DNA of 64,000 nucleotides from Escherichia coli (lineage in GTDB: Bacteria; Pseudomonadota; Gammaproteobacteria; Enterobacterales; Enterobacteriaceae): assembly GCF_009931435.1 (NCBI RefSeq), contig NZ_CP043414.1. One strand, 5' to 3'. Positions 61,131 through 63,653 of the stretch are shown in pieces (the stretch's first letter is position 1; each line of letters starts with the position of its first letter). The translations under genes were made by a program, and so were the position numbers. The notes below the pieces were generated by a model. The model searched no databases, had not been told where the DNA came from, and saw only the letters and a list, made by a program, of their open reading frames with translations.

Positions 61131-63653
61131 TTATGCCGGTAACTCCGGGGGTAATGCTTCTTCCAGTCGGTTAACCATATTGCCGAGATGGGATGCATCA
61201 TATTCCATGACGGGGCGTTGCCTGATGATACTGACCACCAGTGGTTTGATTAACATATTGGTCGCGGCCCGTTGTTGTATACCGGCGGCGAAAATGATCT
61301 CCAGAGCATTCTGATCGATAACACGGGCCAGATTCTCGTTCAGATTTTCAATCTCATGTCCGGTCAGCAGGAAACTGCCGGCAAGCCATGTCACCTGCTC
61401 CTGAATCATTGCCAGAATTTTGACGCGATCTTCTTCAACCAGCGCTCCGGCAATTTTTCCTGATACAGCGGAGGCAATCATTCCCCCCAGAACACCGCCA
61501 ACCACACGCCCTGTCAGTGCACCAAATGGTCCCAGTGGACTGAACAGTATCCCGCCCGCCACTGACCCGACAGCTCCACCTGCCACACCGGAAGATGCCA
61601 CGGCAAGATTCCTGATGAACTGCGCACCGGAGATCCGTCCCCGCAACATTTTGATCATGTCAGGGCCGGTTGTGACAGCTACCAGTGCCAGAGATGTCAC
61701 CAGCGTACCCTTCATTACTTTGTTCAGGGCACTGATATTTCCTGCACCGGTCCCCTTCTGAAGAGCCAGTCGGACAGTCGGGCTGGCAGTCGAAAAATCA
61801 ATGTGCTTCAGCATACCCTGAACAACACTGAGCCGGTGGAGTTGCTGGGTTGTGACGTAGACAGCCAGTGTGCGGGTGAAGGTTTTTCCTGCCTGGACAG
61901 CAGCTGTCTGCAGGGCAGCATCGCGATCGCCGGTGCTGAGCCAGAAGACCGATGCCGTCAGGGCAAAACTGATCCCTCCGGCCGCCAGACTGACAACCGA
62001 ACCCTCGGCAATATCATAAGTGACCGATTCGATGGTCCCGAACCGGGTGATATTACGGGCCTGAGTATAAGTCAGATGTCCCCGACGAATCAGCCGGGAC
62101 GCTTCTGCGGGATCGGTTACACCGGGTACTTTACCTTCGCGGATCTTATTCCTCATGGTTTCAACAGCGCCGGCATACTGATCACGGGGGACTTCCAGTT
62201 GCATGGGGCCATTATTTCCCATGTAACGATACTGTCCGTTTTGTCCGTCGAATGCCGCACCGACGCTACGGGCTGCAGTTGAACAATATTTCGTCTGGAT
62301 TTCTGTTCCGCTGACCAGCCTGTCTGCTCCATTTCTGGCATTATTATCACCGAGGATCCGTGCGTTTTTCAGACGGACTCTGTCGACAATATGGTTTCCC
62401 CGTTCAGCGGCAAACCCATGTCCCTGCCCTCCGGAAGCAAACATTTTCTCATTTGTACTCCAGGTTTCCGGCAGTTTCATGAGAATCAGACCATTCGCCG
62501 TTGCATCGGAAATAAAGCTGTTGTAAGGGCGTTCATAAATTTCCTGACACAGTGTTTCTGTTTCGCGACAAAGAGAGGAGCAGTACCATTCCGGATCCGG
62601 CTTATGATTTTCCGGGGCATGATGTACTTCTGTCAGCCCGCAGGAGGCACAGATACGAAGCTCATCCACGTGATGGAATGATACAAAACGGCGACCTTCT
62701 GAAAAGGGATACCAGTCACCGCCGTCCAGGCAACGATCGAGAAAATCGTCATTTGCTTCCGGTGATAAATTCAGGCGGTTCCGGAAGAGCGTTTTCAGTT
62801 CATCAGGTGTGAATGACAGGTTCTCTTTCAACTGTTCGTTAAACCCTGCCATGTTTCTTTCATACCAGGCATTGTTCAGTAACCAGTTTCCGTCTGCCAG
62901 TTCAAATTCCCTCAGCTCTCCCCGGGAAATCCGTTGAGAAATGAGCGTCAGCCAGATGCGCTCCGTCAGTGAGTCAGGAAGGCTGTAATCGTTTTGCAAA
63001 CTGGTCAGCCACGATTTACTGTTGAGCACCGGTTGTTCTTCCAGTGTCTGGCTGATGGCACAGGTCAGTTTTTTCAGCGCCTGGATCTGGCTGGCCGCCC
63101 ATAGCAGCGTCACTAATGCAGCCAGCCAGTACAACAACCCGCCCCACCACATCAGTGACGGTGAAATATCGTACTGTAACGCGATCAATGGTGCGCATGC
63201 AGAACACGCCATAAGGAAAAAGGCAGTATAAAAACAGCAGTAATACCCGTTAATTTCCTTGCTGATATCTTCTGGTGTGATCCCGTTCTGCTGAATGTTT
63301 TTGATCTGCAGGGGAACAGCCAGCAGACCACCGGCGAGAGCGGTGGTCAGAATAAATTTCACAGAGTCAAAGGTGCGAGCCTCCAGCGCGATATGTTTAC
63401 CATCAAGTCCCCACATGAAGCTGATGATCATTCCGGCAATCGTCAGAAATACGCCTGCCAGCCAGCGAATATGGAACAACCGGGTTATGCGTTCGGTGAT
63501 ATAGCCAGCCAGTAAGGCCGGGCCGAACAGACACAGCAATATGAGCCCTGCCAGCGCAGAAGCCGTGCTGATTAATGCTCTGAACAAAAGGCGAAGAATG
63601 GCAAATCCTGCGATCAGCAGGATCAGCGCGCCGACTATCTGTAACATAGTCAC
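61131..63653 (-). CDS. yeeR: large inner-membrane protein, YeeR-like (full length)
   Basis: 840-aa ORF; multi-TM N-terminus, Cys-rich segment (CASCGLTEVHH...WYCSSLC), Gly-rich hydrophobic C-terminal region; immediately downstream of flu. Confidence 0.6.
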   Translation of the reverse strand: MTMLQIVGALILLIAGFAILRLLFRALISTASALAGLILLCLFGPALLAGYITERITRLFHIRWLAGVFLTIAGMIISFMWGLDGKHIALEARTFDSVKFILTTALAGGLLAVPLQIKNIQQNGITPEDISKEINGYYCCFYTAFFLMACSACAPLIALQYDISPSLMWWGGLLYWLAALVTLLWAASQIQALKKLTCAISQTLEEQPVLNSKSWLTSLQNDYSLPDSLTERIWLTLISQRISRGELREFELADGNWLLNNAWYERNMAGFNEQLKENLSFTPDELKTLFRNRLNLSPEANDDFLDRCLDGGDWYPFSEGRRFVSFHHVDELRICASCGLTEVHHAPENHKPDPEWYCSSLCRETETLCQEIYERPYNSFISDATANGLILMKLPETWSTNEKMFASGGQGHGFAAERGNHIVDRVRLKNARILGDNNARNGADRLVSGTEIQTKYCSTAARSVGAAFDGQNGQYRYMGNNGPMQLEVPRDQYAGAVETMRNKIREGKVPGVTDPAEASRLIRRGHLTYTQARNITRFGTIESVTYDIAEGSVVSLAAGGISFALTASVFWLSTGDRDAALQTAAVQAGKTFTRTLAVYVTTQQLHRLSVVQGMLKHIDFSTASPTVRLALQKGTGAGNISALNKVMKGTLVTSLALVAVTTGPDMIKMLRGRISGAQFIRNLAVASSGVAGGAVGSVAGGILFSPLGPFGALTGRVVGGVLGGMIASAVSGKIAGALVEEDRVKILAMIQEQVTWLAGSFLLTGHEIENLNENLARVIDQNALEIIFAAGIQQRAATNMLIKPLVVSIIRQRPVMEYDASHLGNMVNRLEEALPPELPA

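Follow-up and report, generated by a model that had tools for sequence, protein, structure and literature searches.

The intact yeeR gene and its truncated K-12 counterpart

The DNA analysed here, referred to as the window, is a stretch of 64,000 nucleotides from Escherichia coli (NZ_CP043414.1) at the chromosomal CP4-44 site, on the dacD/sbcB/plaP side, and the gene under study is a long open reading frame (ORF) on its minus strand that follows agn43 (flu). This ORF is almost certainly the intact yeeR gene within the agn43-yeeR-irmA operon at the CP4-44 locus, encoding a protein with the anatomy described below. An initial annotation made from the sequence without database searches had described the product as a YeeR-like protein of 840 amino acids encoded immediately downstream of flu and much longer than the K-12 product of about 510 amino acids. 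The position of the agn43 stop codon (Table 1) and the collinearity with K-12 bear out this assignment. Beyond irmA, the genes for DUF905, DUF932 and an antirestriction protein as well as yeeS, yeeT, cbeA and cbtA follow. Translation of the plus strand of 61131..63653 yielded stops throughout. Residues are numbered throughout in the 840-residue frame counted from the GTG at 63653. However, the ATG at 63647 is most likely the start codon, because GGAG is located 5 nt upstream of this ATG, while the GTG overlaps the same GGAG. The RefSeq/PGAP entry for the identical gene (WP_001474400.1, 'hypothetical protein') starts at the ATG as well. Thus, the figure of 840 stands as the number of codons from the GTG on the minus strand, whereas the probable product comprises 838 amino acids.

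K-12 YeeR (WP_001350525.1, 510 aa) matches residues 3-509 with a single substitution (R93H) and then ends with EER and a stop codon, the break point being located after 'EGKV' plus EER, with yeeS fused just behind. The K-12 DNA is 99.8% identical to positions 64000..62127 of the window, and the flanks agree as well, with agn43 upstream, yeeS, yeeT, cbeA and cbtA downstream and the same dacD/sbcB side. In K-12-derived genomes, the match was restricted to the first 1,527 nt of yeeR. K-12 YeeR is a deletion stump, in which yeeR was joined to yeeS by the loss of 3.3 kb (58791-62126), so that the truncation considered in the initial annotation was found; it had been reported earlier (PMC6480617, PMC4807369). 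Because the break falls within the conserved head domain, the K-12 protein is missing the remainder of the head together with the tail, the glycine zipper and the C-terminal domain, and thus has no YeeR_C module.

Domain architecture of YeeR

Structural models were generated with AlphaFold2 (AF2) for the full protein on a 75-sequence alignment (mean predicted local distance difference test, pLDDT, 78) and separately for residues 200-560 (mean pLDDT 86). The N-terminus had initially been described as polytopic, in agreement with the hydropathy of residues 4-190 (Table 1), and in the model the long transmembrane helices extend up to residue ~206. In structural superpositions, residues ~207-333 fit two consecutive winged-helix domains with a SelB-like fold. 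The likeness to the C-terminal tandem winged-helix domains of SelB and to the winged-helix subunits of ESCRT-II is one of structure alone, at a sequence identity of ~11%. Unlike SelB, YeeR has neither a GTPase domain nor a SECIS-related context, and the similarity is a resemblance in fold and not family membership. The zinc-ribbon-like cluster noticed initially (CASCGLTEVHH...WYCSSLCRETE) corresponds to residues 335-366, and all four cysteines were retained in 50 of 55 full-length homologs. The spacing C335-AS-C338-(19)-C358-SSL-C362 fits C-x2-C-x19-22-C-x3-C, the pattern of TRASH/zf-FCS-type modules. When residues 318-379 were scanned alone against Pfam with E up to 10, neither a zinc-finger nor any other family was matched. 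Residues 191-545 would be cytoplasmic, because the Cys4 zinc site and the winged-helix domains are located there; the way in which charges are distributed over the loops agrees with this topology, although not decisively.

The half of the protein comprising the membrane, winged-helix and zinc domains is confined to the YeeR subgroup of Gamma- and Betaproteobacteria and is far less conserved than the core, with 25-31% versus 53-61% identity in comparisons with Pseudomonas, Vibrio and Methylomonas. When only the N-terminal 398 residues were used as a query, fragments from E. coli saturated the results, so that distant relatives of this half were not revealed.

The C-terminal module starts with an alpha/beta head, in which H412, G413, F414, A415, A416, E417, N420, D424, D444, R445, Q453, K455, Y456, Y477, E487, V488, P489 and D491 are invariant, the polar ones among them being reminiscent of an enzyme. 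Eleven of these residues (H412, G413, E417, D424, D444, R445, Q453, K455, E487, P489 and D491) were invariant in alignments of 48-93 sequences and are all present in YeeR from the window. In the AF2 model, the head consists of a helix (411-426), three strands (431-433, 445-447 and 450-454), a helix, a strand (485-488) and a final helix. On inspection of this alpha-beta-beta-beta-alpha-beta-alpha order, helix 1 carries E417, D444 precedes strand 2 and strand 3 contains Q453-x-K455, so that the modelled head may resemble the core of PD-(D/E)xK nucleases. None of the sequence or fold searches recovered a PD-(D/E)xK or other nuclease family or structure for the head, and sequence and fold searches against the PDB yielded no match of the head to any solved structure. 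An ADP-ribosyltransferase fold, prompted by the 'HG' motif and by a fusion to PARG and ADP-ribosylglycohydrolase (ARH) domains in one relative, was considered and dropped, since the head opens with a long helix bearing H and E, unlike the ADP-ribosyltransferase core, and no ADP-ribosyltransferase appeared in any search.

In the tail, hydropathy revealed a single hydrophobic segment at residues 551-572. The Gly-rich hydrophobic C-terminal stretch of the initial annotation was located at residues 685-732 and is a conserved feature of the family, although weakly hydrophobic. The glycine-zipper segment has (G/A/S)xxx(G/A/S) periodicity and gave weak matches to C19orf12, Gly-zipper, DUF1269, tape-measure and LeoB models. 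The curated thresholds of the Pfam models for Gly-zipper_Omp/YMGG, C19orf12 and DUF1269 were not reached (15.9 bits for C19orf12 compared to a cut-off of 30), and other family members likewise remained below threshold. Direct scans of the full protein returned the sub-threshold C19orf12 match only from Pfam, nothing from NCBIfam and a weak tape-measure match of the glycine zipper from PHROGs, and five sub-segments scanned separately against Pfam with E up to 10 matched nothing. In searches of PDB sequences with the single protein or with the family profile, an Hsp70 lid and a tape-measure protein were the only matches, both of them through low-complexity sequence.

Table 1. Positions of yeeR, its domains and associated features in the window.
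Feature	Position	Strand	Details and basis
Full-length yeeR ORF	61131..63653	minus	840 codons from GTG; stop codon at 61131-61133; uninterrupted; 100% DNA match, annotated as coding sequence in NZ_CP025859.1
Likely true start	63645..63656	minus	GGAG 63656-63653, 5-nt spacer, ATG 63647-63645; sequence read directly; PGAP start
N-terminal membrane domain, residues 4-190	63084..63644	minus	About six hydrophobic segments (hydropathy); five long helices in AF2, pLDDT ~85-96
Tandem winged-helix domains, residues ~207-333	62655..63035	minus	AF2
Cys4 zinc-knuckle or zinc-ribbon-like element, residues 334-364	62562..62654	minus	C335-x2-C338-x19-C358-x3-C362, read from sequence
Helical linker, residues 365-405	62439..62561	minus	AF2, lower model confidence
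Alpha/beta head of YeeR_C, residues ~406-545	62019..62438	minus	Alignments; AF2, pLDDT 83-98
Long, weakly hydrophobic helices of YeeR_C tail, residues 546-682	61608..62018	minus	End in conserved RGRISxxQF motif; AF2, hydropathy, consensus
Glycine-zipper segment, residues 683-735	61449..61607	minus	Repeated small-xxx-small spacing; 15 Gly among the 60 residues 676-735
C-terminal helical domain of YeeR_C, residues 736-840	61134..61448	minus	AF2
agn43 (flu) 3' end	63768..64000	minus	Stop codon 63770-63768; runs beyond window edge; directly upstream of yeeR
irmA	60600..61055	minus	Next gene downstream of yeeR; agn43-yeeR-irmA operon (PMC4807369)
Terminator-like hairpin with T-run after irmA	60547..60575	minus	Sequence scan
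Segment absent from K-12	58791..62126		3.3-kb deletion: yeeR 3' part from codon 510, irmA, DUF905, DUF932, antirestriction gene, yeeS 5' end

The YeeR_C family across bacteria

The C-terminal module belongs to Pfam family PF27347 (YeeR_C), an assignment that was taken from precomputed hits of a 99%-identical cluster representative (P0001, 838 aa) and of all listed homologs. The conserved core of the family corresponds to residues ~400-815. A profile search of 1.84 billion representatives retrieved 946 clusters at E <1e-30 and 4,175 at E <1e-3, and some of the weak matches probably involve the Gly-rich region only. The roughly 950 clusters at 50% identity with E <1e-30 share the invariant residues and the order of head, tail, glycine zipper and helical end. 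They originate from Proteobacteria, Firmicutes, Negativicutes, Actinobacteria, Campylobacter and Riflebacteria, and a scan of species-representative genomes detected relatives in Lachnospiraceae, Oscillospiraceae, Clostridia, Bacillus, Paenibacillus, Vagococcus, Negativicutes, Eggerthellaceae, Campylobacter, Riflebacteria, Acidobacteria and Alpha-, Beta- and Gammaproteobacteria. YeeR shares the core with the other PF27347 members, whereas the membrane, winged-helix and zinc half is a feature of the YeeR subgroup: most members are stand-alone proteins of 470-650 aa that start at the head and lack the winged-helix and zinc modules. Some are named 'glycine zipper family protein' by NCBI. Other members carry Sel1/TPR repeats, zinc ribbons, TerB, FGE-sulfatase, or PARG and ADP-ribosylglycohydrolase domains as N-terminal extras, and family members gave weak matches to pore-forming or membrane-inserting glycine-zipper families (RTX N-terminal domain, class II bacteriocins, LeoB and tape-measure protein).

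Full-length orthologs of 820-850 aa, with 37-69% identity and end-to-end alignment (95-100% coverage), were found in Serratia, other Enterobacteriaceae, Methylomonas, Shewanella, Pseudomonas, Stutzerimonas, Herbaspirillum, Cupriavidus and Deefgea. One of two PARG-carrying family members (P0168, 1,335 aa; L009 4620-8627, a metagenome contig) unites a microbial-type PARG domain with an ADP-ribosylglycohydrolase, a segment similar to the Bunzi BnzA model (E 1.6e-12) and, at the C-terminus, a YeeR_C module; an HD-domain gene is located upstream and a radical-SAM gene downstream. This protein hints at a link between YeeR_C and ADP-ribose chemistry. An EF-Tu-type GTPase behind the YeeR_C module of another member (P0157), conspicuous in view of the SelB-like winged helices, was not considered further, as it is a single case with the P-loop right after the domain and probably a gene-call run-on.

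Homology to PDC-M09B and the WYL cassette

PADLOC reported weak, colinear matches of YeeR to PDC-M09B, with head residues 436-499 aligned to profile positions 96-158 and tail residues 578-733 to positions 252-403. These matches are partial, and their E-values (5.9e-6 and 4.9e-5) are below member level compared to 1e-93 to 1e-214 for true M09B proteins. An alignment of YeeR_C with M09B by hhalign, using family alignments on both sides, reached a probability of 95.3% and an E-value of 2e-8 over 224 columns, and both families have the motifs HGxxAE, D...QxK(F/Y), (E/H)-[VI]-P-x-D and RG.IS..F in common. Sequence comparison thus points to distant homology between YeeR_C and PDC-M09B. PDC families are phage defence candidates, which were nominated for their embedding in BREX, DISARM, RM-I and Hma loci and have candidate status only (Payne et al., bioRxiv 10.1101/2024.01.29.577857).

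A cassette of four closely spaced genes on the same strand was found in Enterobacter, Serratia, further Enterobacteriaceae and a small number of E. coli strains; it encodes a helix-turn-helix (HTH)-WYL regulator, PDC-M09A (281 aa, E 1e-119), PDC-M09B (481-483 aa, E 1e-214) and, as the last gene, a YeeR ortholog of 839-840 aa that is 68% identical to YeeR from the window. The gaps between the genes range from a 1-nt overlap to ~40 nt. These cassettes reside in the same type of island as yeeR in the window, with AlpA, a Gp2-like protein, a GTPase, DUF932 and an Ag43-like autotransporter, and the genes behind them are either DndBCDE plus PIN or a SIR2 gene. YeeR resembles the PDC-M09 system in that M09B is a distant homolog of YeeR_C and M09A, M09B and YeeR occur together in one WYL-headed cassette, but differs in that YeeR from the window does not reach member level for M09B and both M09A and M09B are missing from the window. 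In E. coli ET896 (L096 5110-9409), YafY/WYL, M09A and M09B genes are followed by a gene for an unrelated 346-aa protein with one N-terminal hydrophobic segment in the place of YeeR, and TrlF-like AAA ATPase and RNA-binding-domain genes adjoin this cassette. The 346-aa protein showed no similarity to the N-terminal half of YeeR, and YeeR is therefore one of several alternative third components of the cassette.

Other genomic neighbourhoods

The neighbours of YeeR_C genes were clustered in a sample of 80 loci. An HTH-WYL regulator was located upstream of stand-alone YeeR_C genes in ~11 loci from Firmicutes, a conserved gene for a ~113-aa protein directly upstream of YeeR_C in 10 loci, a conserved gene for a protein of ~115-150 aa directly downstream in 13 loci, and Sel1 proteins adjoined YeeR_C in five. 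Neither of the two small flanking proteins matched Pfam or PADLOC models; possibly they are partner or immunity proteins. In Firmicutes and Actinobacteria, the small genes are separated from YeeR_C by gaps of 0-20 nt, and they were recorded downstream at L025, L033, L035, L048, L058, L061, L069, L074, L076, L078 and L079 and upstream at L032, L036, L043, L047, L054, L062, L065, L080 and L088. On a conjugative plasmid of Lactococcus, a WYL gene is followed by a YeeR_C gene ('glycine zipper family protein') and a hypothetical gene. In Veillonella (L089 4016-14482) and at L071, L082 and L085, a PDC-M09A-like gene is clustered with a YeeR_C gene and with as many as three paralogous Sel1-repeat proteins; these large paralogs have 600-816 aa and a common conserved N-terminal domain.

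Other full-length orthologs stand alone, but in variable islands: that of Methylomonas is found with HicAB, a TIR protein and IS66, that of Cupriavidus with AbiGi, DUF4062 and DUF3800, and that of Stutzerimonas with RadC and DUF736. The Herbaspirillum ortholog is part of an integrase-bounded element, adjoining DUF6361 and PLD genes and a gene for 1,049 aa. Conservation next to Ag43, as stated in the initial annotation, applies to islands of the E. coli type, but orthologs of Pseudomonas, Cupriavidus, Herbaspirillum, Methylomonas and Stutzerimonas lack an Ag43 neighbour.

Opposite the Gly-rich region, the plus strand of the window contains a long, Pro/Thr/Ala-rich ORF of 113 aa (61420-61761), and an opposite-strand ORF recurred in 47-61 of the 80 homologous loci (antisense ORF clusters 1, 2 and 7; loci L010-L089). 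This ORF is a shadow of the conserved glycine codons and not a gene, although it could mislead gene callers; clusters 1, 2 and 7 were accordingly dropped as candidate partner genes, since they are antisense ORFs within the YeeR_C gene. In a strain with a yeeR region identical to that of the window, which lies at the same locus, the island past cbtA (L001 15742-20801) contains truncated DUF5983 and DUF957 genes, an IS110 element, IS3 fragments and a group II intron (ltrA).

Prevalence, disrupted alleles and selection

DNA of yeeR was found in 2,584 of 5,426 complete E. coli genomes, 1,797 of which cover at least 80% of the query, so that about 30% of the matching genomes have less than 80% coverage. 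The cluster representative P0001 stands for 15,556 member sequences. Between the alleles of the window and of Nissle 1917, both agn43-linked and differing at 80 sites, the ratio of non-synonymous to synonymous substitution rates (dN/dS) was 0.20 overall and 0.04 in the tail, indicating that intact yeeR copies are under purifying selection. Independent disruptions comprise the K-12 deletion, a 5' truncation in ST131, an insertion sequence in CFT073 and in-frame internal deletions of the zinc and head regions. In ST131 strain 5392 (L003 4122-5255), the 5' half of yeeR is missing and the gene carries a pseudogene annotation, and full-length YeeR may not be made in the EC958-type strains that defined the agn43-yeeR-irmA operon. 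The in-frame variants from E. coli are P0003 (746 aa, missing ~395-483), P0004 (691 aa, 38 contigs, ~313-459), P0006 (634 aa, ~354-525) and P0021/P0022 (558 aa, ~248-518), in all of which the zinc knuckle and/or the head are removed, while the membrane domain and the tail are retained. Two chimeric ORFs, P0018 (658 aa) and P0020 (687 aa), join the N-terminal part of YeeR to a RadC/YeeS domain (PF04002) or to DUF932 (PF06067), indicating further independent deletions of the K-12 kind in this island.

The agn43-yeeR-irmA operon

In uropathogenic E. coli, agn43, yeeR and irmA are co-transcribed from the agn43 promoter, which is controlled by OxyR and Dam and repressed by OxyR, and YeeR was called uncharacterised (PMC4807369). 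IrmA reaches the supernatant in a strain without functional Ag43 and YeeR (PMC4807369), and in strain 042 irmA possesses a separate promoter and is not transcribed together with yeeR (PMC9431211). A sequence scan of the window detected no terminator-like site in either the agn43-yeeR or the yeeR-irmA interval. The agn43-yeeR intergenic region contains a perfect 12-bp inverted repeat, GGTCCCGGTCAT-c-ATGACCGGGACC, at 63723-63747 (minus strand), 20 nt past the agn43 stop codon and with no T-run behind it. This repeat could form a hairpin for mRNA stability or processing or be an element similar to repetitive extragenic palindromes (REP) rather than a terminator.

Possible functions of YeeR

A C-terminal module that stays the same while the N-terminal domains are exchanged is a pattern typical of effector-plus-sensor proteins in biological-conflict systems. 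On the basis of its sequence and of the company its relatives keep, we tentatively read YeeR as a membrane protein of the conflict or defence type that unites a sensor with an effector. YeeR_C would be the constant effector module, and the N-terminal parts that vary within the family would serve sensing or targeting. In YeeR, sensing might be performed by the membrane domain together with the cytoplasmic winged-helix/zinc module, which would be suited to binding nucleic acids or proteins. A trigger such as the entry of a phage or of foreign DNA may then cause the head to change its state or to act enzymatically, possibly in a nuclease-like manner, whereupon the glycine-zipper tail would insert into the inner membrane or oligomerise there and so compromise this membrane. 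In the Enterobacteriaceae lineage with the 68%-identical ortholog, YeeR presumably acts together with PDC-M09A and with its own distant paralog PDC-M09B in a cassette under WYL regulation, and YeeR from the window would be an orphan copy that is co-transcribed with the phase-variable agn43. We infer defence from the association with defence candidates and WYL regulators, and membrane permeabilisation from the glycine zipper. The proposed logic, with variable sensor-like domains fused to a constant membrane-active module, is like that of membrane effectors from systems of the abortive-infection type, for example the transmembrane effectors of CBASS or Thoeris, in which a cytoplasmic sensor domain is paired with a membrane-disrupting segment. 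PARG and ADP-ribosylglycohydrolase domains precede YeeR_C in one relative. However, the analysis revealed no relationship to these systems in sequence or structure, the window has no gene for a signalling enzyme close to yeeR, and any disruption of membranes by YeeR is hypothetical.

Several observations weigh against a defence function. PDC-M09 itself is a candidate and not a demonstrated defence system, and tblastn searches with WYL, M09A and M09B against the whole 64-kb window detected no homolog. Several stand-alone homologs have housekeeping neighbours only, and nothing around them points clearly to defence. Phage genomes hardly ever contain the family (one of 50,697 records, with the gene placed like a moron between those for endolysin and invertase), and it is rare on true plasmids, where few copies were found. 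This rarity is neutral with respect to a role in defence and lends no support to a phage-borne origin in superinfection exclusion. In addition, yeeR is often deleted or disrupted in E. coli (K-12, ST131 and the internal-deletion variants). The glycine zipper was modelled at pLDDT 25-50 and is weakly hydrophobic, so that membrane insertion of the tail is an assumption.

Alternatively, YeeR could be a membrane-tethered nucleic-acid enzyme and not a pore-former, in which the winged-helix/zinc module binds DNA or RNA, the head cleaves or modifies it, for example incoming phage or conjugative DNA, and the Gly-rich tail serves for anchoring or oligomerisation. SelB-type tandem winged helices bind RNA or DNA in solved relatives, the Cys4 knuckle is conserved, the invariant acidic and basic residues of the head would be compatible with a PD-(D/E)xK core, and the pattern H-G-x-x-A-E...D...Q-x-K-F/Y...P-x-D recurs in PDC-M09B. 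We nevertheless consider such an enzyme rather unlikely, as no search returned a nuclease family or structure, stand-alone YeeR_C proteins lack the winged-helix and zinc domains, and tandem winged helices also make protein-protein contacts, as in ESCRT-II. The absence of M09A, M09B and WYL from the window, while a sister lineage keeps the full cassette in the same type of island, would also fit a functionless, slowly decaying agn43-linked orphan of an ancestral WYL-M09A-M09B-YeeR cassette, as would the frequent independent disruptions and the proportion of genomes with incomplete coverage. This appears improbable in view of the low dN/dS, especially in the tail, and of the intact 838-aa form being by far the commonest. 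Moreover, full-length YeeR occurs without M09AB in many genera and can therefore evidently function as a single gene.

A role as accessory factor for Ag43 and/or IrmA, in their biogenesis, secretion, anchoring or regulation and thus for example in biofilm formation or host interaction, is suggested by the co-transcription of the three genes (PMC4807369), by the missing terminator-like site between agn43 and yeeR, and by the linkage of agn43, yeeR and irmA across ~1,800 E. coli genomes, which is correlated with extra copies of hha. Such a role is very unlikely, however, because IrmA is released independently of Ag43 and YeeR, irmA can have its own promoter, K-12 keeps an intact agn43 next to a truncated yeeR, and the orthologs of other genera lack Ag43 or IrmA neighbours. 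In the related island of Enterobacteriaceae, the operon partners of YeeR are WYL, M09A and M09B, whereas the Ag43-like gene is located on the other strand, ~9 kb away. The sole point in favour of the long ORF being an artefact, in which a frameshift from sequencing or a faulty assembly had fused two genes, is the familiar 510-aa product of K-12, and its probability is practically negligible: identical ORFs are present in many independent complete genomes, the 820-850-aa architecture recurs in dozens of divergent orthologs down to ~37% identity, and the K-12 end point results from the 3.3-kb deletion and is no natural gene boundary.

Extending the sensor-effector reading, YeeR_C might be the membrane effector of a large unrecognised class of WYL-regulated anti-phage or anti-plasmid systems, of which PDC-M09 and the mini-operons of Firmicutes would be variants, while YeeR of E. 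coli would be self-contained, with its own membrane and winged-helix/zinc sensor, and phase-variable together with Ag43. We regard this extension as possible but doubtful; if true, it would mean phase-variable immunity coupled to aggregation.

Implications

The yeeR gene, its full length, the operon and the K-12 truncation are already known from the literature and RefSeq, and the C-terminal module is a known Pfam family. The domain dissection (SelB-like winged-helix tandem, Cys4 knuckle, head plus glycine-zipper module), the homology to PDC-M09B, the WYL-M09A-M09B-YeeR cassette and the recurrent association with WYL regulators across phyla appear to be absent from the searched literature, in which no paper links YeeR to phage defence. 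The gene is present in about half of the complete E. coli genomes and is co-expressed with the major adhesin Ag43 and the vaccine candidate IrmA. As the K-12 stump lacks the conserved module, knock-out data from K-12 are uninformative on YeeR_C. The homology to PDC-M09B and the cassette in defence islands provide a specific, testable lead on YeeR, and since YeeR_C is found in roughly a thousand diverged clusters across bacterial phyla, a function found here would annotate many genes.

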